64,000 nucleotides of DNA from Spirochaetia bacterium. GTDB lineage: Bacteria; Spirochaetota; Spirochaetia; DSM-2461. The DNA lies in contig CAXXIA010000002.1 of assembly GCA_963666985.2 (NCBI GenBank), positions 2,528,001 to 2,592,000 of the forward strand, in the 5' to 3' direction. Made by a program: the position numbers and the translations under genes. Positions 2,253 through 49,372 of this stretch are shown in pieces (the stretch's first letter is position 1; each line of letters begins with the position of its first letter). A model generated the notes under the pieces. The model saw nothing but the letters and a program-made list of their open reading frames with translations. It was not told where the DNA came from and made no database searches.

Positions 2253-3083
2253 GTGAAACGACAATCAAGAATCGACTATTTACAAGATATTATCGCAGAA
2301 GCGAATTCCATAACCATAAAAGACCTGGCGGATCGGATGGATGTTTCCGTCATGACGATTCGCCGGGATATGGAGGTTCTGGAAGAAGCCGGATTAATCC
2401 GGACTTACCGCGGAGGGGTGATCGTTTCCGAGAAGCCCTCTCACCATAATTCCATCGCCGGATATTCCCTGACTTCGGCGGAAACTTCCCAAGTGGAAGA
2501 GAAAAAAGCCATCGCCCGGGTTGCCGCTTCTCTTATTGAAGAAGGTGATGTGGTATTCTTCGATGCCGGATCAACAGTGGAACTCATCTTAAGTTTCTTA
2601 AATCCGGATATCGAGATGACGGCCATTTGCTACAGCCTGAACATCATGAATCATTTGGCGAAATGGGCCCACACGCGGATTATCTTCGCGGGCGGTCATT
2701 ATCATCCCGACTCTCAAAATTTTGAGAGTCCCGAGGGGTTGGAACTTTTATCGAGGAACCGGATTTCCAAGGCCTTTATTTCCGCCAATGGAATACGCGC
2801 CGACCTCGGAGTCACCAGCTCCGGTCAATTTGAAATCCCTATAAAGCGGATTATTATCGAAAACAGCATCGCATCCTACTTGGTCGCCGACAGTACGAAA
2901 TGCGGATTGGTTCGAACGGCGCATTTCGCCGATGTCCGTGATTTTTCCGCCATTATAACCGACTGGCATATCTGGGATGATATGAAGGAAAAGCTGATTG
3001 AGGTTGGTGCCGATGTTATGGTGGCCCCGAATCCTTTGGGGAGCGCCGCTACGGAACACGAAACACCCTCCATTGAGAACTAG
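2253..3083 (+). CDS. DeoR/GlpR-family transcriptional regulator
   Basis: HTH VSVMTIRRDM; FFDAGST; VADSTK. Confidence 0.93.
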   Translation: MKRQSRIDYLQDIIAEANSITIKDLADRMDVSVMTIRRDMEVLEEAGLIRTYRGGVIVSEKPSHHNSIAGYSLTSAETSQVEEKKAIARVAASLIEEGDVVFFDAGSTVELILSFLNPDIEMTAICYSLNIMNHLAKWAHTRIIFAGGHYHPDSQNFESPEGLELLSRNRISKAFISANGIRADLGVTSSGQFEIPIKRIIIENSIASYLVADSTKCGLVRTAHFADVRDFSAIITDWHIWDDMKEKLIEVGADVMVAPNPLGSAATEHETPSIEN

Positions 3084-12707: not shown

Positions 12708-12903
12708 GAACGCGGACGGGGCTGTCGTATAGGCGGCCCCCGATGGGCCGCCTATGGGCCGCCGTTTTGTCCGTGATTCGCCGACTGGCCGAATGGAATC
12801 TCGGCCGCGGAATCCCGCGGCGAAAAGGGCAAAACCTTTCGAATCACCCGGATGATTCGGGAAACATAGACATCAATGTGTGTGTCCTTTAGGATCGGTA
12901 TTT

Positions 12904-13202
12904 ATGACGTCCACCCCTCTTTACCTGGCTTTGGATATCGGGGCCGCTTCCGGCGCGAAACTGGCTTTGTTTACAGATGGTTCCATGCCTATTACCGAAC
13001 CGAGAAACTGTGCTTTGCGGTATCATGAGGTTTTCGACGATTTCGTCGATGCCCTGCTCGCCGGCGCGGAAGAAACCCTCGGAGAAATGAACCGATCTTT
13101 CAAGGATCTGGCCGCGATCGGAATCGCCTCGGCGGGAATCCTCGGGAAAGACGGACGATTCCAGCTGTTTCATAACCGTCCGCAGTACAACGGATTCAAT
13201 CT
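12904..13202 (+). pseudogene. ROK-family protein, N-terminal part (interrupted by prophage)
   Basis: LALDIG, AIGIASAG; joins 48559 onward in frame once the prophage and one AATCT copy are removed. Confidence 0.9.
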
Positions 13203-13216
13203 TGTAACCGCTCGCC

Positions 13217-13250
13217 GAAAATGAAAAACAAATTCACTGAAAATGAAAAA
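13217..13250 (+). repeat. Left-end transposase-binding repeats GAAAATGAAAAA x2
   Basis: Copies at 13217-13228 and 13239-13250; inverted copy at 48528-48539 lies the same distance from the right end. Confidence 0.8.
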
Positions 13251-29432: not shown

Positions 29433-29641
29433 ATCAACTCCAGTTGTCGAACTCTCTCTTCAAACATGGCCGTCAGGCTGACACTCTCGCCGTTCACCAA
29501 ACCGAAATACTCACCCGATGTCAGCACCGGTGATAAATTTCCTGAAAACACCGGAATAAGATTTCCGGTTTTGAGCCAATAAAAACGGGCGAGTATCCCT
29601 AAGATGGAGTAACCATACACCCATCGAAAAGGACACTGCCC

Positions 29642-30895
29642 GTGAAGCTCCAGGAGAAACGCATGCACCAGGCTCAAGTGCTGGCCAAGGAAGGGTACAA
29701 GCAGTACCGAATCGCCGAAATACTCGGCGTTACCGACCGAACGGTTCGAAATTACCTCAGCGGACACAGTCCCAAAATGAGCCCCAGGAAGAAACGGAAG
29801 AGCAAGCTCGACCACTTCAAATCCCATATTCGCAGTGTACTTGAGGAGGAACCGCTCTTCAATTGCGAGGTGCTTTATAAGAATCTTTGCGCCATGGGTT
29901 ACACCGGAGGAATCACCATCCTCCGTGATTTCGCCAAAGAGACCCGAGATGAGATTCAGAGAGAAGTAGTTCGCCGCTTCGAAACCCAGGCCGGCTACCA
30001 GGCACAGATGGACTGGAAGATATTGCCGAAGGAACACTGGCGAGGCGTCTACGCCTTCGTCATGGTCCTCGGCTACAGCCGGACTCCCTATGTGAGATTC
30101 ACCACCGATATGACCAGCGGCACACTGCTGGCCTGCCACCAGAAAGCCTTTGAGTATTTTGGCGGTGTTCCTCAGACTGTATTGTACGACAACATGAAAA
30201 CAGCATGGGTCCACGACGGAGAAGAGTGGAAGACCAACTCCCGGTTACTGGAGTTCGCTTCCTCCTACGGTTTCTCTCCAAGACGATGCGCCGTCAGGCG
30301 TCCCCAGACCAAAGGAAAAGTAGAGAGGTTCATCGACTACCTTTCGGGTAACTTCCTTTCTCAGGCACGGCGTAGTGGCCTGAAGACGATCGAAGAACTC
30401 AATGACGCCATTCTGCCCTGGCTGACTGAAGTTCAGCAGAAAGAGCTCCGGGACTACCAGGAAAGTCGTGCCCAGCGATATGAGGTGGAGAAATCCTTCC
30501 TGCAACCGGCACCGCCAGAGGGAGCTTTTGACTACCGTGACAGCATTCAGCTCATTGTCAGTCGAGAAGGCTCAGTCACCTACAAGACTAACAAGTACAG
30601 CGTGCCGCCTGTATTGGTTGGTAAGAAGCTGACGCTGAAAATCGATGCGCTTTCCATGCAGGGGGAAATCCTCAATGGGAAGGTTTCCATACGGCTATTC
30701 AATCTCCTTCCAGCTGGCTCCCGGCAGAAGGATATCCGCAATGAAGATCGGGAAGCACTCTTTACCCTGTGGGAGAAGCAGCGTAAGAAGTCGGCGAAAA
30801 AACCAGTCCGGAAGCAACAAGATGAGCAGACCATCGTCGATATCAGAAATCCTGCCTACTATGAGCGCTTTGTCGCTGTGGGAGTCTCGGTATGA
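29642..30895 (+). CDS. istA: IS21 transposase
   Basis: HTH; RFETQAGYQAQMDW, YDNMKT, PQTKGKVER, NKYSVP. Confidence 0.95.
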   Translation: MKLQEKRMHQAQVLAKEGYKQYRIAEILGVTDRTVRNYLSGHSPKMSPRKKRKSKLDHFKSHIRSVLEEEPLFNCEVLYKNLCAMGYTGGITILRDFAKETRDEIQREVVRRFETQAGYQAQMDWKILPKEHWRGVYAFVMVLGYSRTPYVRFTTDMTSGTLLACHQKAFEYFGGVPQTVLYDNMKTAWVHDGEEWKTNSRLLEFASSYGFSPRRCAVRRPQTKGKVERFIDYLSGNFLSQARRSGLKTIEELNDAILPWLTEVQQKELRDYQESRAQRYEVEKSFLQPAPPEGAFDYRDSIQLIVSREGSVTYKTNKYSVPPVLVGKKLTLKIDALSMQGEILNGKVSIRLFNLLPAGSRQKDIRNEDREALFTLWEKQRKKSAKKPVRKQQDEQTIVDIRNPAYYERFVAVGVSV

Positions 30896-31656
30896 ATATC
30901 AAACTTGAGACCGTCACCGAGAGAATGAATTCGCTGGGTATGAGTTTCATGTCCGCAGGACTGGAATCCTTCCTGGCAGAACCCCGCCGGCAGGAACAGA
31001 CGGTACTGGATATCGTTGCCGACTTGATGGAACTTGAATACATCCCCCGTAAAGAACGGAGCGCCAAGAGCCGCTTGAAGCTTTCAGGAATGCCGGCAGT
31101 GAAAAGGCTGGAAGACTTCGACAGGGGGTGGCTCAAAGGTGGTATCACCAACCGCCAGTTTGACGAGCTCTCCTCTCTGGCCTTCATCGAGCGAAAGGAG
31201 AACGTCATTCTCATGGGTCCCAGCGGCCTGGGAAAATCTCATCTGATGCTGGCCCTGGGGCACAAGGCCTGCATGGAGGGATTCACCACCTACCATACCA
31301 CCTGCATCGACCTCATTGAGAACCTGGTTCTTGCCCGAGAGAACAACCGGCTCAAGCGTCGGCTGGTATGGCTCCGAAAACCGCACCTGCTTCTCATCGA
31401 TGAAGTCGGTTACGAGAAGCTGACACCCGAACAGGCTAATCTTTTCTTCCAGGTTGTGAATGCCCGGTATGAACAGGGGAGTATGATCATTACGACGAAC
31501 AAGCCATTTGGCAGATGGGCGGAGATAATGAGTGATGAGGCTGTTGCCAGTGCAACCCTGGACCGTCTGCTTCACCATGCTCATATCCTGAGTCTTCAAG
31601 GAGACTCGTACCGAATGAAGGATCGGTTGAAAGCGGGAGTCGTTGACTTCCTTTGA
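30892..31656 (+). CDS. istB: IS21 helper ATPase
   Basis: GPSGLGKSH, LLLIDEVGY, LDRLLHH, GDSYR. Confidence 0.95.
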   Translation: MNIKLETVTERMNSLGMSFMSAGLESFLAEPRRQEQTVLDIVADLMELEYIPRKERSAKSRLKLSGMPAVKRLEDFDRGWLKGGITNRQFDELSSLAFIERKENVILMGPSGLGKSHLMLALGHKACMEGFTTYHTTCIDLIENLVLARENNRLKRRLVWLRKPHLLLIDEVGYEKLTPEQANLFFQVVNARYEQGSMIITTNKPFGRWAEIMSDEAVASATLDRLLHHAHILSLQGDSYRMKDRLKAGVVDFL

Positions 31657-31896
31657 CGCCCAAAACCGGAAAAACTAAATCGGTGAAATCCGGAAATGTT
31701 TCGTCGGTGTTGACACCCGAGAGTTCTTCAAAATCGGCGAAGCTGTTTAAGGGATAGTCTTTCTGGAACTCATGCCAAGCTCTTAAAACTTTTTCCCCGC
31801 CATGCTCTTCGGCCAGCCGCACGGCAATCTCTTTCTCAAACTCTTCAAGCTCCCAGTCGAACGGCTCTTGAAGATGGCTAAAATATTCATCCCTCT

Positions 31897-33914: not shown

Positions 33915-35174
33915 TTACTGTATAGAACAGCATAAAACGTCTCCAGCCGTTCCAACTTGAATTTGATTTTCATAGAAAAAGAAGATTATTACGGCTATAT
34001 CTAGAAGAGCGATGACAACAGCACAGAAAATTAGGAGTCCTTTCTGAAAACGAGCTCTCTTATCCAGGTCACCAATTAAGTCACCTATCTGTTTATATTG
34101 AGCTGCATAATGAAATTTTAATCTATTCATCTGACCTGTATACTCTTCTTTTATACTTTTTAATGTATGGTTCTGATTTTTTAACAACAGAAGCATAAAG
34201 ACACTATAAATAACAATGGCAGCATAGAGTAAGAGAGCTGATAATTTGTCAAAACTATTCTCAGGATCATTCAATTCAATAGCGGCTAGAACAATAGAAA
34301 CGGGAACTCCAAGCATTTTTGCTTGTATTGATGAAAAAATATCATTGATTTTGAGAAGGTATTCTCGCTTTTTCTCTTCATATTCCAACCTTACTTTGTC
34401 GAAAGAAAACTCAGAAACGAATAAATGGTAGTTCTCGTTGATTCTTTTTGAGAACTCTCCAAAGTTCTTAAAAAGAAATTCCAACCTTTTTTCTTCCGAG
34501 ATATTTATCAAAAAGCTATACAAAACTTCTTTCAGAATACTTCTCTTTTGTTGCTTATGAGAATCATCCTCAAAGATCGAATTTAAGATTTTTAATCCAT
34601 CCAGATCCATTTCAAGAAAATGCGCATCTAAACTTTTTAAAGAGATAGATAACGATGACCTGTGGAGGAACACATATTTATCGATTATCTTATCGGAGAA
34701 GAACTGAACGTGATCAGCATTATTCTTTAATAGCTGTAAGACGGAAACAACTCCTTTATAATGAAAAACCTCTTTCTGATCTTTGGATTGGGAAAAAATC
34801 AAGCCTTCGTTGAGTAACAGACAGTCATCTGGGAGAGAAAAGAAGTATTGCCTATATTCCAGAAAATGATTCCAGTTCCGAAATATTAATAATCCATTGG
34901 AAACTAGATCATCATGAGAAAGACTTACTGTAACAGTTATATCTGATTTTAATTTAAGGATACTCCATTCTTCAGCTCTATCAGTCTCTGAGCCTTTATC
35001 TAGATAAGATGTTTCATTGATTATTTGCGAAGGGAGGGAATCAACGTCTTGGATGAATTGGTTAGTTATCACCGAAGAGAATCTGAAATAACCGCCCTCT
35101 TCTTTGAGGTTATATTTAGTGTGTAATTGAAGAATCTTTTCTAAACATTTCTCAATGTCAAGTTTTTTGTTCAT
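33915..35174 (-). CDS. Uncharacterised protein with C-terminal TM helices and coiled coil (accessory gene)
   Basis: AT-rich; FSFDKVRLEY..K motif, then about 3 hydrophobic helices; overlaps the upstream gene. Confidence 0.8.
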   Translation of the reverse strand: MNKKLDIEKCLEKILQLHTKYNLKEEGGYFRFSSVITNQFIQDVDSLPSQIINETSYLDKGSETDRAEEWSILKLKSDITVTVSLSHDDLVSNGLLIFRNWNHFLEYRQYFFSLPDDCLLLNEGLIFSQSKDQKEVFHYKGVVSVLQLLKNNADHVQFFSDKIIDKYVFLHRSSLSISLKSLDAHFLEMDLDGLKILNSIFEDDSHKQQKRSILKEVLYSFLINISEEKRLEFLFKNFGEFSKRINENYHLFVSEFSFDKVRLEYEEKKREYLLKINDIFSSIQAKMLGVPVSIVLAAIELNDPENSFDKLSALLLYAAIVIYSVFMLLLLKNQNHTLKSIKEEYTGQMNRLKFHYAAQYKQIGDLIGDLDKRARFQKGLLIFCAVVIALLDIAVIIFFFYENQIQVGTAGDVLCCSIQ

Positions 35175-36183
35175 TGCCGATTATTTGATTTTCTAATTCG
35201 GTCGGTATTTTGTCAATCTTCAATATTCCAGTCTCTTTATTATAATGAATTATTTTATTTAATAGACTTGATTCAAAGCTAATCGAAAAATCTTTTGTCC
35301 TTCCTGAAAATCGGGTAAATCCTCTTAATGCCATTCTATCCAAAGAGATTTCGTTATTAAGCTCATAGTCTTCTTGGGCGACTTTCAGGAAAAGACCTTT
35401 CTCTTTCGGTTCATATCTTGAATCAAGCATTTCAGATATTTTATCCAGCTCCGCAGGCTTTTCAGTATTCAATCGATCAAGACAATATTCTTTAACTGTA
35501 TTCCTAACATTATTTGTTATTTCATCTTCAAACTCATTTCTTTTGCACCAATCTCGAATAGCCCTAACAAGATTGCTTGTATCAATAGCGGTCTTCTTGA
35601 ATTCACTGCAACCAATAAAATTAGAAAAATAGTCTCTAACATCATTTGCAGATCGGCCAATCTTGAATGATATGTATTTATCAGAACTTCCCGATAGCCA
35701 TTTTGAAAGATTAATTCTTGCAGCCATGTGAAGTTTGTCGAGATCCAGACTTTCAATTTTGTCCAAAGTGAGTGTTTCACTTATAATCATTCCAGATTTA
35801 TTCCGTAGAAGAATTATAGAAAGAAAGCTTTCGCCTTTATGGTCGTAATGATTAAAGAGGAGAAAACCACCCTTTCCAGATTTACTCTCGTCAAGTTCCT
35901 TTTTGAATGAGTTCGTAGAGTCCTCTGTGAATTTCAAAAAATTAGAAAAACTATTTTTGATATAATATTCCTCTAGTCTCCTTTGAAAAGCGGGCTCTAT
36001 ACCTTCATTTTCCTCTGGAGGCGTAAAACGACCAATACTGACACCAGTCGTCCCAAACAGTTTTGATATCTGAGATGATAATTCTTCAGCTTTATCGTCT
36101 TTAACGTTTTCTTCTTTTCTAAGAACGGGTGGTATATCGGCTCCTTCATGAACTTCGTGAACTATGAAATTTTTAATTGCCAT
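35158..36183 (-). CDS. Nucleoid-associated protein NdpA/YejK family (NA37)
   Basis: FIVHE, GGFLLF..Y, LDLDKLHMAARINLSKW, YISF, DYFSNFIGC. Confidence 0.82.
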   Translation of the reverse strand: MAIKNFIVHEVHEGADIPPVLRKEENVKDDKAEELSSQISKLFGTTGVSIGRFTPPEENEGIEPAFQRRLEEYYIKNSFSNFLKFTEDSTNSFKKELDESKSGKGGFLLFNHYDHKGESFLSIILLRNKSGMIISETLTLDKIESLDLDKLHMAARINLSKWLSGSSDKYISFKIGRSANDVRDYFSNFIGCSEFKKTAIDTSNLVRAIRDWCKRNEFEDEITNNVRNTVKEYCLDRLNTEKPAELDKISEMLDSRYEPKEKGLFLKVAQEDYELNNEISLDRMALRGFTRFSGRTKDFSISFESSLLNKIIHYNKETGILKIDKIPTELENQIIGNEQKT

Positions 36184-43991: not shown

Positions 43992-45544
43992 TGAACGATC
44001 GCCTGAGCCGGGTTAAGAGTGCCAGGGATTTTCAAAAACAATGGGACGCTCTGGCCGCTGAGATCTTTTCCCGAACCCCCTTTGAAGACGGGAGTTCAAA
44101 GGAAGATAGAAAAGAGGCGGCATCGAAAGATCCGTGGTCCATGGCCCTGGTTTATTTCCCCGAATATGTCAGGAACGAAGGAGCCCCTTTTCACAAGAGA
44201 TGGCCGAAGATTGCAGGCATAGAGAATGCACCAGTTCTGATTGAAGCTTTTCGTGGTGCGGGGAAATCAACGTTCTTCACTTTTCTTGATAGCGTTTACA
44301 ACATCCTTTTTGGAGACTATAAATTCATGCTCTTTGCCTCATACACAGAGGATAAAAGCAAGGTCTTCACCGGAAGGATTCTTCTGGAACTCAAATACAA
44401 CAAGAGGATTACAGAGGACTTCGGTCGGATTATTAATCCGCTTTTGGACTTCTCCGCCGTGGGTAATTTCGCCGCCAAGGTTGACGGCCGCCGGATCATG
44501 GTCATGGCCTGTTCCATAGGGCAAGATCCCAGGGGCCTGGTTTCCGGAGCTTACCGACCGGATTATGTCCGCCTCGATGATATCCAAAATCGTAAACGAG
44601 CCAGGAATCCGGAATGGGTCAAGCAGACTGTCGAGTGGATCACCGCCGACCTTGTACCTGCTCTGGCGGAAACCTATAACATGAAAATCGCCGCAACTTC
44701 TGTCAGGCCTCGGGATGTCGTTCACTTCTTAAAAGAAGGGGCGGAGACAAGGGAGCCGGTGAAATCCTACAGCTTCCCGGCTTTGGATAAATACGGGAAA
44801 TCCACATGGTCAGCTTATTTTCCACTGAAGAGATTGGAACAAATAAAGAAAACAATCGGAGCCTTGGTCTTCCGGCAGGAATATCTTCTTATTCCATATG
44901 CAGAAGAAGACGGCAAGGTTCAAGAGTCCTGGTTGTTGGACTACGATCCGGCAGAAGTCAGGGAAAAAGAATATTTGGTGAAGGTCTCAGCCCTTGATCC
45001 GGGCGGTGGCAAAGCTACAAAGAAACACGACTTTAAGGCTCATATCTGTATCGGCCTGAATCCCGGCCCCGAGATTGATATTCTGGAAGCCCGAATCAGA
45101 AGGGAGACTCCCCGGAGGATGATTGAGGGCTGCTATCTCATTCATGAAAAGTGGGAACCTTGGCAGACCTTCTGGGAAGAGAACGGACAGCAGAGTCTCT
45201 TGAAGGATACCTTCGATTTCATGGCCGAGAGGTTCGGCTATCCGCTCCGGCTGAAGGCCGTAACCAATACCCAGAATAAAGAGATGCGAATTGAGGGGAC
45301 ACTCTTCACGCTTTTGGAAAACCACTGCATTCGGTTCCATCCGACAAACGCCGATCAGAAGCTTTTAAAAGAACAGCTACTGGATCTTTTTGATGGAGCC
45401 AACGACGACGGTCCGGATGCTCTGGAAATGGCCGTAAGAAAAGGATTGCAGAAACTGAAAAGCATCATGAAGGGTTCTCATTCAGATGTGGTTTCAATTA
45501 AACGGCGGATTGTTCCCAAAGGACTGGAGGGGTATTACACGTGA
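43991..45544 (+). CDS. Terminase large subunit
   Basis: FRGAGKST, RGL..G..RPD...LDD, FRQEY, ALDP, DDGPDAL. Confidence 0.92.
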   Translation: MNDRLSRVKSARDFQKQWDALAAEIFSRTPFEDGSSKEDRKEAASKDPWSMALVYFPEYVRNEGAPFHKRWPKIAGIENAPVLIEAFRGAGKSTFFTFLDSVYNILFGDYKFMLFASYTEDKSKVFTGRILLELKYNKRITEDFGRIINPLLDFSAVGNFAAKVDGRRIMVMACSIGQDPRGLVSGAYRPDYVRLDDIQNRKRARNPEWVKQTVEWITADLVPALAETYNMKIAATSVRPRDVVHFLKEGAETREPVKSYSFPALDKYGKSTWSAYFPLKRLEQIKKTIGALVFRQEYLLIPYAEEDGKVQESWLLDYDPAEVREKEYLVKVSALDPGGGKATKKHDFKAHICIGLNPGPEIDILEARIRRETPRRMIEGCYLIHEKWEPWQTFWEENGQQSLLKDTFDFMAERFGYPLRLKAVTNTQNKEMRIEGTLFTLLENHCIRFHPTNADQKLLKEQLLDLFDGANDDGPDALEMAVRKGLQKLKSIMKGSHSDVVSIKRRIVPKGLEGYYT

Positions 45545-47022
45545 AATTCGCACCGGAAGATAAAATAAAGAAACAGGCTCTGCAATATGCAACACTCGAT
45601 AAAGCTCTGGGTGGCGTCTATCTAATTCTTGATGTCCTGCCTGATCCTGATAAAGTGCTGCGAAAAGCCGGTAAAGGAGTCGAAGCCCTACGGGATCTTC
45701 TGGTGGACGACCAGATGGAAGCCTGCTGGAATGTTCGCAAAGCGGCCTTGAAAAAAACCGGTTGGCACCTTGTCCCCGGTGGAGAGTCGGCCGGGGAGAA
45801 ACAAGCCTGTGCCGAACTCTTAGCGCTCTTTTCCGAAGCCTATGATATGGACCGAATCCAGGGGGAAATGATCGAGGCGGCCGCTCTGGGATTCTCTCCC
45901 CTGGAAATCCTCTGGCTCTCAAAGGGCGGGAAGTGGATACCTTCCGACTTGGTTGGAAAGCCGACCGAATGGTTTTGCTTTGGCGAGAAAAAAGAGCTGC
46001 GGTTCCGAACTTCTTATATCGTCACAGAAGAGGCCCCGGTGAATCGCTTCCTGATTGTCAGCAATGGGGCCAGCTATGCAAATCCCTATGGCTCAAAGCA
46101 GTTTTCCAAATGCTACTGGCCGGTTCAATTCAAGCGGAACGGCTGGAGGTGGTGGGCACTCTTTGTCGAAAAGTTTGGCGGTTCTTTTTTGACGGGTGCC
46201 TACGATGAGAACGCAACCCCAGAGGATAAAAAAGCTCTTCTCGACGGCCTCTACAATTTGATTTCAGGAGGGGCCGCCATCTTCCCGGAAAAGACCAAGG
46301 TGAATACCATCTCGGATTCCGGCAAATCAATGGGCGGAACCCTGCATCAGAAGTTCGAGGAGTTCTCCAACGCCGCCATCTCCAAAGTGCTTCTGGGTCA
46401 GACTCTAACGACCGAAGTTCTCACCGGTTCTATGGCGGCCGCCAATGTTCACAATCTGGTGCGGGAGGATATTCGGCTTTCAGATCTGAAGATGTGCTCG
46501 TCGGCCTGGAACCGGCTCTGCAAAATGTACACCCTTTTTAATTATGGTGATGGGGTAAAAGCTCCCCGCTTCAGTTATGAAGGGGAAGAGGATCTGCAAA
46601 CCGCCAGAGCCTCTCGTGATATCAACCTGAAAAGCCTGGGCGTACAATTCAATGAAACCTACTTCAAAGAAGTCTATGGACTCTCTGAAGATCACTTTTC
46701 TGTAAGCACCGACTCAGAGCCTCAGCAGGGCGACTTCTCCGTCGAACCCTCCGGCCTGGTAACGTTCAGTCAGGACAAAGCCAGTGACGACATGATGAAC
46801 GACTTCATGGCCGACAAAGAAAGGGACGGCCAGGAGATCATGGACAAGATGATCGAGCTGTTCCAGAAAGAAGTCGAATCCGCTGATAGCTGGGAAGCTG
46901 CACAGCAGAACCTCATGAAGAAAATCAAATCCAAAGAGATGTACTCCCAAAGAAAGAAGCTGGCCGGGGTGTTGAATAATGTCCGATACGTCGGAGTCAA
47001 CACCGGGGCTTCCGATGCCTGA
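45541..47022 (+). CDS. Portal protein (Mu gp29 / DUF935)
   Basis: LPDPDKVLRK, GFSPLEILW, NPYG, FVEKFG, ISKVLLGQTLTT, VHNLVR. Confidence 0.92.
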   Translation: MKFAPEDKIKKQALQYATLDKALGGVYLILDVLPDPDKVLRKAGKGVEALRDLLVDDQMEACWNVRKAALKKTGWHLVPGGESAGEKQACAELLALFSEAYDMDRIQGEMIEAAALGFSPLEILWLSKGGKWIPSDLVGKPTEWFCFGEKKELRFRTSYIVTEEAPVNRFLIVSNGASYANPYGSKQFSKCYWPVQFKRNGWRWWALFVEKFGGSFLTGAYDENATPEDKKALLDGLYNLISGGAAIFPEKTKVNTISDSGKSMGGTLHQKFEEFSNAAISKVLLGQTLTTEVLTGSMAAANVHNLVREDIRLSDLKMCSSAWNRLCKMYTLFNYGDGVKAPRFSYEGEEDLQTARASRDINLKSLGVQFNETYFKEVYGLSEDHFSVSTDSEPQQGDFSVEPSGLVTFSQDKASDDMMNDFMADKERDGQEIMDKMIELFQKEVESADSWEAAQQNLMKKIKSKEMYSQRKKLAGVLNNVRYVGVNTGASDA

Positions 47023-48253
47023 GCAGGATATCCCGAAACCGAAAGACGCGATGGCCTTTCTGAAAAGAAAGAAGGTCATCATCAGGCCGGGGAATGAATG
47101 GTTTGATATCAATTCGGGTGAGCATGCTCAGACCTTCTCCGTGGCTCACTGTGCCAGTGTAGACATCGCCGAACAAATCTTCGGATTCATGAATGAGGCT
47201 CTGGCGAACGGGGAATCCTTTCAGGATTTCAAGAAGAAGATGATCCCCATGATGCAGGAGTCCGGCTGGTACGGGCGTCCTGATGTCACCGCCAAGGATA
47301 AGGGCTACATCAATTGGCGGCTGAAAATCATGTATCAAACCAACATGAGCACGGCTTACGCGGCCGGGCATTATCGTCAGCAAATGAGGGGTGCGGATGG
47401 GCGACCGTACCTTGTCTATAAGCAGGTGCAAAGAGACACGAAACGTGACGCCCATGAGAAGCTTCACGATACTGCCTATCCGGCAGATCATTCTTTCTGG
47501 GATGAATACTATCCGCCGAACGGTTACCGATGCGGATGCTACACCGTCTCCATTTCTGAATCCCAGTACCAAAACGGACCCTACACGAAAGGGGCGAGCG
47601 GTCCGGATCTTGCCGAATTCAGAAAGTCCGTTGATGAGAAATGGAGGTACAACCCAGGCCAGGAAGTCTATGCGCCATCGGTGAAGAAGTACGAGAACCT
47701 CCGTGGCATCAGAATGAGTGACGGCCGCTCGGCCTATCAGCATGTACGGGAATCCTATCGGGAAGAGATGTCCGGATTTTCATTGACTCAAAAAGAATAT
47801 GAGAAGTGGGTGGATAAAGTGCTCTCCGGTGAAACCTTTCAGGATGTTCCTCATAACATTGCTACCGTTCAGAAAAAGGTTACTCAGAAGATTGAGATTG
47901 ATCCGAAAATCATCGCCGACGGGAAGGCCATTCATCATGGAGCCAGAGGCCGGGACACGGTTTCCGATGCATCAGGGAAGGTTATTCAAAGGGGCCTCGA
48001 CCCGGAGAAAGACTTTACCATCGAAGAAATCAAGGACATTCCCAAAGGTCTGGCCGATCCGGATTATATCTTTACAGATATTACCAATCGGTTGAATAGA
48101 ATCTTTTGCTATTCAATAGGAAAAGGAATGTTGGCCAGAATCGTTTTAAGAAAAAGAACGGAAACCTCAAGCTTAAAATTGGTGACTTTCCAAAAGGTAA
48201 AGCCGGATGACGTTCTGAAGAATGGAAGATTGCAGAAGGTCTATGAGAAATAA
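47015..48253 (+). CDS. MuF (gp30) head protein with C-terminal nuclease-like extension
   Basis: FSVA, YQTNMSTAYAAG, HSFWDEYYPPNGYRCGC, YNPG, then about 190 extra aa. Confidence 0.88.
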   Translation: MPEQDIPKPKDAMAFLKRKKVIIRPGNEWFDINSGEHAQTFSVAHCASVDIAEQIFGFMNEALANGESFQDFKKKMIPMMQESGWYGRPDVTAKDKGYINWRLKIMYQTNMSTAYAAGHYRQQMRGADGRPYLVYKQVQRDTKRDAHEKLHDTAYPADHSFWDEYYPPNGYRCGCYTVSISESQYQNGPYTKGASGPDLAEFRKSVDEKWRYNPGQEVYAPSVKKYENLRGIRMSDGRSAYQHVRESYREEMSGFSLTQKEYEKWVDKVLSGETFQDVPHNIATVQKKVTQKIEIDPKIIADGKAIHHGARGRDTVSDASGKVIQRGLDPEKDFTIEEIKDIPKGLADPDYIFTDITNRLNRIFCYSIGKGMLARIVLRKRTETSSLKLVTFQKVKPDDVLKNGRLQKVYEK

Positions 48254-48335
48254 GCCGGTCGGGCGGGACTACGATTCCCACTATATTGCCCTTGAAAGGG
48301 TAGCCTTGAGATTTTTGGCTTCATCTCAACCGGCT
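48253..48335 (+). ncRNA. Putative structured RNA immediately after the MuF stop codon
   Basis: AGCCGGT/ACCGGCT closing stem enclosing three hairpins. Confidence 0.45.
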
Positions 48336-48527
48336 ATTGATGATTTTATCGTCATTTAAAGCGCTTTTCAACACTGTTTAATAGGCCATTTTATTCAAAT
48401 TTAGGGCCTAAAATTATGAGATTTTACGAGTTTTTCAGTATTTTTTCCAAACCTTAGATTATTCGCTATTGCTTTCCTATGATCCTATTATATAAGGATT
48501 TATGCAGTATTTCCGGGCAAGAATCCC

Positions 48528-48553: not shown

Positions 48554-48558
48554 AATCT

Positions 48559-49372
48559 GCCAGAAACCTTGGAAAACAGACTCGGGATTCCCGCCGCAAT
48601 CGCCAACGACGCGGACGCCGGCGGATTGGCCGAATGGAGCATACTGCGCCTGGAGCTTCTTTATTGGGTGTTCGGCGGCGGATGGGGCGGTACCTGGGTG
48701 GACCGGAACGGAGAAATCCGCTATCCGTCGACAGGATGGGACGGCCTGGATTCTTCTCTGCACTACAGCAACGAACCGGGATATGCCATCGGATTGGAGC
48801 GGAGCCGTCTGCGGAGTCTTTTCGCCGAAGTCGGCGCCCATTGGGAACTTTTTGAGGTTCAATTGAACGAAGATTCCGCATTGCCCGCCGATTCCCTCGT
48901 GGGACCCGAAGGGCGGAAAGATACACTGCGGGCGGAAGTTATCCTTTCCGGTCCCGGCCGCTGCCGGCTTTTCCGTTCTCTGGTGGAAGACGATGATTCT
49001 TATAAGAAATACCTGGAAATTCACGAGATTGCCGAGGTAACCGATCCGGCGAGCGCCGGGGCTCATATCAGCAAATTATCGGGAATGAGAGTGGAGGCGG
49101 CGGTGAATACGGACCGCCTTTACGGCAAGGTTCTTGCCGAAGCGACCCGTATATTGTTAAGACAAGCCGAAGCCGACGGTCTGCCGCAGGGGGTGCCGAT
49201 TTGTTTGGGCGGGAAACCCAGTTACGCACTGCCGTATTTCGGACCTTCGACACAGAGGGTCTTGGGGAAATCGGGTCTGTTCAACTATCTTCGTCCGTCG
49301 GTTATCGATGAACGGGGAAGCAACGCCAATCTGGTGGGAGCCGCCGAGCTGGCCAGACGGGCCGCGAAGTAA
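48559..49372 (+). pseudogene. ROK-family protein, C-terminal part
   Basis: LGIPAAIANDADAGGLAE, GGGWGG, CLGG, ANLVGAA. Confidence 0.9.

Follow-up and report, generated by a model that had tools for sequence, protein, structure and literature searches.

A 64,000-nucleotide stretch of DNA from a Spirochaetia bacterium (contig CAXXIA010000002.1, hereafter the window) carries, near the right end of a Mu-like transposable prophage, a gene for the phage head protein MuF that is directly followed by a small structured RNA element. We favour, at somewhat better than even confidence, a module of two parts, in which a MuF protein with a colicin-D-like RNase tip of the Barnase/EndoU/colicin/RelE (BECR) fold is paired with a putative tRNA-mimic RNA antitoxin encoded on the opposite strand. 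As judged from comparison of sequences, the evidence comprises the layout, the strand, a promoter consensus, a covarying cloverleaf, the occurrence of one RNA family per nuclease subfamily, and the joint loss of RNA and catalytic signature. The element is real, its strand has been corrected, and it is predicted to represent a widespread, uncatalogued class of RNA tied to nuclease activity. A preliminary description of this DNA had already proposed that the RNA is an antitoxin, decoy substrate, or cofactor. That proposal stands in so far as a covarying cloverleaf replaces the immunity gene and is lost with the catalytic signature, but not in its sense-strand cloverleaf. Rather than a sense 3' trailer of the MuF mRNA, the RNA is best read as a gene in its own right, convergent to MuF, driven by a predicted promoter of its own, and tRNA-like on the minus strand.

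The Phage_Mu_F domain (PF04233) of the MuF protein scores 52.4 bits against a cut-off of 29.6, and the portal gene lies immediately upstream, which together place the gene in the MuF family. Beyond the YNPG motif about 197 residues remain, in line with the extension of roughly 190 residues reported earlier, and the motifs quoted for it are found. The description of this tail as PBECR-like is likewise borne out by profile comparison and by a predicted structure of BECR type, although Foldseek gave nothing significant. The tail profile aligns with MuF_C-type tails at an hhalign probability of 96.7 (E 3e-10). Single-linkage clustering puts the tail together with Mu gp30 and with MuF_C, PBECR3, and LPD13 tails; this group holds 104 of the 152 long tails. 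Moreover, 11 of the 50 members of alignment A9, which were chosen for having the catalytic His, match MuF_C at E <=0.01. Atlas matches of the tail to PBECR2 and MuF_C (best 0.85) are a lead only. The nearest named MuF relatives belong to Treponema and Spirochaetaceae assemblies, and no close relative was found when viral contigs and phage records were scanned with the window protein or its tail, or by a DNA pattern scan.

A structure model of the tail, built from 50 sequences, has a predicted local distance difference test score of 87.9. Its structural neighbours with Z >=5 comprise 11 chains, every one of them a toxin domain, from BrnT, RelE, ParE, CdiA-CT, and an unnamed toxin-antitoxin complex. 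Nearest is BrnT 3u97 (Z 6.1, root-mean-square deviation 3.4, 76 residues aligned), and colicin D 5znm aligns over 82 residues with Z 4.9. A first, poorer model had mixed neighbours, and a profile search of solved structures with the tail returned none below E 0.28. The active site of PBECR nucleases is described as a His on the helix at the N-terminus plus a Ser or Thr on the last strand (PMC5512222), the same arrangement is given for colicin-like BECR RNases, and characterised colicin-like BECR toxins are stated mostly to cleave tRNA (10.64898/2026.08.28.747851). In the model, His308 (47936-47938) is part of a helix, and the last core strand holds Thr391 (48185-48187). In model numbering, they fall in helix 23-29 and strand 107-115, which corresponds to the PBECR active site. 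His308 is invariant in alignments A2, A5, and A9, and Thr391 is kept at >=90% in A2 and A5. A PBECR/MuF-C-like BECR nuclease fold is thus supported by profiles and modelling, and the tail would presumably act as an RNase.

The predicted RNA gene abuts the stop codon of MuF. Read along the minus strand, it consists of a closing stem (P1, 48335-48327 paired with 48261-48253), an AG connector, a D-like arm with an 11-nt loop (P2, 48320-48317 with 48305-48302), an arm that has a loop of 4 nt and no anticodon loop (P3, 48300-48289), a linker, a T-like arm of 6 bp with the 7-nt loop AUCGUAG (48281-48263), one base, and the closing strand. This order matches that of the relatives, and the T-like arm is similar to those of loci L116, L141, and L184. 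The window copy encodes no CCA end. All the hairpins named in the preliminary description are located (GGGA/TCCC at 48265-48279, TTGCCCT/AGGGTAG at 48286-48303, TTGAGAT/ATCTCAA at 48306-48329, and the closing stem), the third overlapping the closing stem by base 48329. Their assignment to the plus strand is withdrawn: the minus strand folds better (z -3.4 vs -2.2) and bears the promoter, and the T-loops of the relatives lie on the minus strand. The argument that G-U pairing favours the plus strand holds for the middle hairpin but not elsewhere, as the extension of the closing stem and the T-like stem show G-U pairing on the minus strand only. Two hairpins of 7 bp can also form on the plus strand, one of them perfect and the other with two G-U pairs. 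Rfam and ARAGORN report no tRNA or other RNA in the window, and none of the host tRNAs compared with the element is a notable match. No terminator-like site is found on either strand of 48253-48360, and the plus strand lacks a U-tract, which speaks against the element being solely a terminator. The three closest proteins (P0004, P0005, and P0006) are known as protein sequences. For P0004, which is 84% identical, read-through translation indicates that the element is nearly unchanged; furthermore, the codons over both promoter boxes are kept and four spacer codons differ.

The sigma70-like promoter that faces the RNA is intact in the window, at the spacing typical of the family, and the predicted RNA start is at about 48336-48337. 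Around MuF relatives, 261 loci were gathered; the gene was complete and the flank long enough in 229 of them, and removal of duplicates by the last 60 residues left 211. Four loci with cut or read-through tails (L136, L146, L148, and L150) were left out of the promoter, gap, and RNA-call counts. By an ad hoc score, a convergent promoter is present in 38/38 intact loci of the window's tail family; the same score finds one in 6/61 tail-less MuF loci and at 362/3190 (11%) long open reading frames (ORFs) of the window's genome. When the locus must also show a closing stem that has >=7 pairs and terminates at the stop codon, the counts are 29/38, 1/61, and 70/3190 (2.2%), respectively. Among other tail types, the promoter accompanies MuF_C (8/12), PBECR3 (7/10), and CdiA_C-like tails (3/3), and none of three ADP-ribosyltransferase tails. 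All six PBECR3 genes without a MuF match have a convergent promoter as well, in several cases inside the ORF. Non-MuF PBECR3 genes at L267 and L269-L272 show a convergent promoter and a structured RNA that lies partly within the reading frame, and at L267 an apparently ordinary tRNA gene stands just upstream on the strand of the RNA. At L014, a CdiA_C-like MuF tail is followed, after position 3051, by a convergent promoter and a small structured RNA. This promoter is presumably of the Bacteroidota type, judging from its motif, which suggests that the promoter adapts to the host.

A protein immunity gene is lacking. As stated in the preliminary description, no plausible plus-strand ORF follows MuF; among ORFs of >=40 aa there is only one of 45 aa (48222-48359), which overlaps the MuF end. 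A same-strand immunity ORF directly downstream, which is characteristic of MuF toxins with protein immunity, is therefore absent. A hidden immunity peptide on either strand was considered and rejected, because no conservation is seen: in 38 loci, antisense ORFs starting from the RNA range from 0 to 226 aa, occupy three frames, and are unrelated. The RNAs of relatives differ from one another by indels of 1-3 nt. In the peptidase-like tails of L005 and L007, an ORF follows directly and no such RNA is present. A functional replacement tRNA was also rejected, as the anticodon arm is not conserved.

Covariation supports the fold on the minus strand. In alignment A6 (24 members of one subgroup, picked by hand from 39 listed), the cloverleaf has 90% of its cells paired and 18/22 pairs changed on both sides, counts that are inflated since the structure was drawn from the same, related sequences. 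Its covariation score is 0.445 vs 0.226 for shuffled and <=0.14 for slid controls, and the structure includes a two-pair contact from the D-like loop to the linker. An independent family linked to PBECR3 (A8, 11 sequences) shows 94% pairing with 15/26 pairs covarying; its D-loop/T-loop kissing helix is paired in 100% of the 11 sequences and compensated at 2/4 pairs. The strict T-loop pattern occurs on the minus strand of 24/41 family loci vs 0/41 on the plus strand, and a looser stem-loop pattern occurs in 28 vs 7 of 56 His-bearing tails. Other tail families bear RNAs of their own, placed and oriented alike, and those linked to MuF_C keep the D-loop GG and the T-loop consensus GGTTCGANTCC. The Rfam tRNA model (RF00005, cut-off 29) matches 2/54 loci scanned, L092 with 36.7 and L238 with 30.0 bits, both on the minus strand, and ARAGORN calls a tRNA in 2/36 relatives. 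P3 loop length varies among relatives, and no anticodon is conserved. A hairpin with a T-run at the stop codon delimits a discrete RNA in L186, L217, L187, and L188, whereas the RNA lies inside the ORF in L146, L148, L150, and several PBECR3 genes.

Several variants of the RNA are worth recording. Where CCA is encoded, it mostly comes from the last Trp codon and stop of the gene, whose reverse complement reads A-CCA. This is the case in L107, L108, L110, L112, L118, L120, and L126, and there the tRNA-type 3' end of the RNA overlaps the toxin gene. L002, L105, L106, L109, L143, and L166 have long versions of ~155-165 nt, in which further nested arms separate the closing stem from a canonical T-arm. 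At L022 (2710-2892, minus strand), two different RNA units stand in tandem behind one promoter. The promoter-proximal unit is nearly identical to the single unit of L131 and still shows what is left of an earlier gene end, in the manner of stacked immunity cassettes.

A further link between RNA and nuclease comes from the catalytic signature. Automatic RNA calling was noisy (28/41 family loci, 5/62 tail-less loci, and a likely false call at L089), and it was superseded by the promoter-anchored test above and by a gap test, which takes the length between the MuF stop and the gpG homologue that comes next, and was chosen to bypass RNA calling. A gap of 66-177 nt before gpG is found for 27/28 tails with a His or Lys in the catalytic column or shortly behind it vs 0/6 tails without. 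On the tree, there are three separate joint losses, two of them beside RNA-bearing sisters (L041/L194; L033 with L050/L200). Familiar phages conform to this pattern. MuF overlaps gpG in Mu and JBD18, which have neither the His nor the RNA, and in BcepMu, which has no tail; B3, 61% identical to JBD18 with the His kept, has a 123-nt gap with a minus-strand fold, and a Mannheimia phage of the Lys type has a 150-nt gap. The PBECR domain of Mu (gp30) has been called inactive independently (PMC5512222). In B3 (L264, 1898-1996), an annotated 32-aa hypothetical ORF, B3ORF34, covers the predicted antisense RNA. As far as sequences can tell, such joint loss is what would be expected of an antitoxin or a cofactor. 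Because the RNA is lost together with the catalytic residue of the nuclease, it is probably an antidote.

A number of observations weigh against the favoured module. On the protein side, the structural Z-scores are modest (5.0-6.1, best 6.1), neither tail model has a Foldseek match at E <=0.001, and the Pfam PBECR and MuF_C models give the tail 13.5 and 13.6 bits, under cut-off. On the side of the association, gpG was found for just 34 of the 100 tails aligned, the definition of the signature followed inspection of the data, the kin are not independent, and the joint loss equally fits a cofactor or a processed product. There are exceptions, namely L252 (a nearby His and no gap), L096 (an RNA called and no signature scored), and L172 (Lys type with an ORF at +1), and the promoter occurs in only 18/30 PBECR2 tails. 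In 9/28 His-tail loci that have a canonical T-arm, the stem is followed by CCA, an end that would be dispensable for a pure inhibitor. As for the window copy, its middle hairpin pairs better on the plus strand, and folding energies do not separate the strands for a single P0004-like stem change. Furthermore, R1, a covariance model of the Treponema-type RNA subfamily built in this analysis, does not place the element among its 23 matches at E <=5 in the 64-kb window. Because R1 fails to find the element, the membership of the window RNA rests on position, promoter, end sequences, and layout. In the 301 bases of 48150-48450, R1 scores 5.5 bits (E 0.11), its best match being the element on the minus strand with correct ends. 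The covariation among homologues called for earlier is present as a conserved cloverleaf in relatives, but the window copy itself scores low. R1 also misses most other subfamilies, including the clearly structured L004, L018, L102, and L104; therefore, the low score of the window copy reflects subfamily divergence. The window copy is also without the G-C long-range pairs of the A6 group. Across 141 genomes, R1 matched in one, at the MuF locus itself.

Among the rival explanations, the least improbable, though still unlikely, treats the RNA as payload or cofactor: the nuclease would mature the RNA or form a ribonucleoprotein with it, and the tRNA mimic would be the working part, for instance as a decoy for host tRNA-cleaving defences, as a ligand of the ribosome or a synthetase, or as a subunit that travels in the head and confers specificity. 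The loss of the RNA along with the catalytic His, the A-CCA ends, and the ARAGORN calls would all agree with it, as would the suggestion that PBECRs may not cut host tRNA, since the phage needs tRNA (PMC5512222). However, a convergent housekeeping promoter of its own suggests that the RNA is expressed in the lysogen and not together with late genes, the RNA sequence follows the nuclease subfamily without convergence on one host tRNA, and neither the variable P3 loops nor the window copy, which lacks CCA and any notable host-tRNA match, suits a working tRNA mimic. A type I-like antisense control appears still less probable. Here the transcript would enter the 3' end of MuF or pair with the late mRNA and silence leaky toxin, and the cloverleaf would only stabilise it. 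All family loci are indeed convergent and abutting or overlapping, some RNAs lie within the ORF, and the window scan found no minus-strand terminator-like site. Yet pairing needs no tRNA elbow, covarying loop-loop kiss, or T-loop consensus, the hairpin and T-run loci yield a discrete RNA, and silencing would give no protection once heads require MuF.

It is quite improbable that the family RNA is real and the window copy has decayed or acts on the plus strand as a 3' trailer of the MuF mRNA. The low R1 score, the plus-strand hairpins, and the missing CCA and A6-type pairs would be accounted for. Against this stand the intact promoter, the intact His308 and Thr391, the failure of R1 with other clearly structured members, and P0004, which keeps the element nearly unchanged while its promoter spacer codons drift. 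A terminator, a phage-end signal, or a relic tRNA gene unrelated to the nuclease is largely refuted and carries very little weight. The element does lie 220 nt from the phage end and some members score as tRNA, but in proteobacterial Mu-like phages the RNA is found mid-genome between MuF and gpG, the plus strand has no U-tract, promoter and closing stem coincide at a single tail-less MuF locus, and R1 is confined to one genome. Moreover, Mu-like phages insert by transposition and not at tRNA attachment sites.

Under the favoured antitoxin reading, the colicin-D-like RNase would be produced along with the head, and the tRNA-shaped RNA would be produced steadily in the lysogen from its own housekeeping promoter. 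The RNA would fold as a tRNA elbow and bind the nuclease as a substrate mimic without a conserved anticodon loop. Once bound, it would shield the cell while MuF is produced in head assembly, and it would likewise shield the lysogen. It would probably also protect against the same toxin brought by a superinfecting relative. The principle would be that of a type III toxin-antitoxin pair acting as the immunity factor of a polymorphic virion toxin.

The coordinates of the module and its prophage are given in Table 1. The prophage has an unusual Mu-like layout. Its capsid, tail, and baseplate-like genes lie at the left on the minus strand; the repressor and early genes come next, then terminase, portal, and MuF up to the right end, and the genes for transposase, terminase subunits, portal, and MuF are on the plus strand. 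No gpG stands directly after MuF in the window prophage. The inverted pair at the phage ends is likely a transposase site. The interrupted host gene (pieces 12880-13224 and 48559-49372) we take to be a ROK-like sugar kinase from its motifs; a Pfam scan of the right piece gave no match. An element inside the prophage (29519-31715) is presumably IS21-like, with transposase and ATPase, and has seven further identical copies in the genome. Beside the repressor, two ORFs of 419 and 341 aa with ~33% GC (33915-36183, minus strand) are possibly a cargo or defence pair. The second of them we assume to resemble nucleoid-associated NdpA/YejK-type proteins. Finally, an ORF at the left phage end (13303-14232, minus strand) is, on our reading of its motifs, DNA adenine methyltransferase-like.

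Table 1. Features of the module and the prophage in the window
Feature	Position	Strand	Basis or remark
MuF gene	47015-48253	+	412 aa; Pfam Phage_Mu_F (PF04233) at residues 60-177
C-terminal BECR-fold (MuF-C/PBECR-like) domain, predicted RNase	47855-48250	+	residues 281-412
tRNA-like RNA gene, predicted, convergent to MuF	48253-48335	-	fold; matching layout in relatives
Sigma70-like promoter, predicted	48343-48371	-	TTGAAA-17 nt-TAAAAT; points at the RNA from the phage-end side; ends 7 nt before the stem
Portal gene, Mu-type	45541-47022	+	Pfam Portal_Mu, E 3e-82; stop overlaps MuF start
Right phage end	48528-48553		carries TTTTTCATTTTC, matched in inverted form by GAAAATGAAAAA close to the left end
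Mu-like transposable prophage	13203-48553		ends TGTA...TACA; 5-bp target duplication AATCT at 13198-13202 and 48554-48558

The module fits the defining layout of neither the MuF toxins with protein immunity nor the RNA-neutralised RNases (type III, AbiF). Type III toxin-antitoxin systems are represented by ToxIN, CptIN, TenpIN, and AbiQ, and in the classical form an upstream array of tandem pseudoknot-repeat RNA is co-transcribed with the toxin. Type III systems and AbiF/AbiFr share with the window module an RNase toxin and a cis-encoded structured RNA, whereas the window module differs from type III systems in its toxin fold, its setting in a virion head gene, and its single downstream cloverleaf on the opposite strand with its own promoter. 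The classical type III layout is not seen in the window module, and tandem units, two and different, occur only in L022. Bacterial Y RNAs are known tRNA mimics. With tRNA (RF00005) and tRNA mimics such as tmRNA ends, the element and its relatives have in common an acceptor-like stem, D-like and T-like arms, and, in some subfamilies, the GG D-loop, the T-loop consensus, and CCA. Unlike tRNA, they have no conserved anticodon arm, measure 75-160 nt, and carry subfamily-specific loops, and the window copy falls under the Rfam cut-off. In AbiF/AbiFr, RNA binds and inhibits the nuclease (PMC12737573). Polymorphic toxins of the MuF type are known with protein immunity (PMC5576092; PMC12226406), and one of these papers left most proteobacterial extensions unassigned. 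The window module resembles them in having MuF in the head-packaging module, a variable C-terminal effector, and a small neighbour gene right after the stop; unlike theirs, the neighbour is non-coding, convergent, and tRNA-like. From PBECR/MuF-C RNases, which share the BECR fold, the placement of His and Ser/Thr, and the MuF fusion, the window tail differs as a spirochaete-type subfamily under Pfam cut-offs. The available parts of PMC5512222 and 10.64898/2026.08.28.747851 mention no associated RNA or neutraliser of PBECR. Likewise, neither Rfam nor the literature searched, taken apart from subscription journals and supplements (including those of PMC5512222/PMC5737381), yielded an account of any RNA lying behind PBECR or MuF-C genes; the word PBECR occurs there in only four papers.

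Nucleases of the PBECR and MuF-C types occur widely in phage head genes and in polyvalent proteins. A broader proposal, which we hold to be possible and rather doubtful, is that MuF-C, PBECR2/3, LPD3/13, and related phage BECR nucleases form a large undescribed class of ribonucleoproteins, each with a tRNA-derived partner RNA on the opposite strand. At one end of the spectrum these RNAs would be near-canonical tRNAs, some of which end in CCA and may be processed or charged by the host, and at the other end loop-kissing mimics. They would set or block the specificity of the nuclease, and could be swapped or stacked like immunity cassettes, as at L022. If true, this would mean RNA-based immunity or RNA-programmed activity for polymorphic toxins delivered by virions. 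The favoured mechanism, which follows the type III principle, would add a new RNA architecture to the RNA-neutralised toxins and give a polymorphic toxin family an immunity made of RNA. A tRNA-shaped antidote, if true, would explain how a phage makes a tRNA-type nuclease in its own host.

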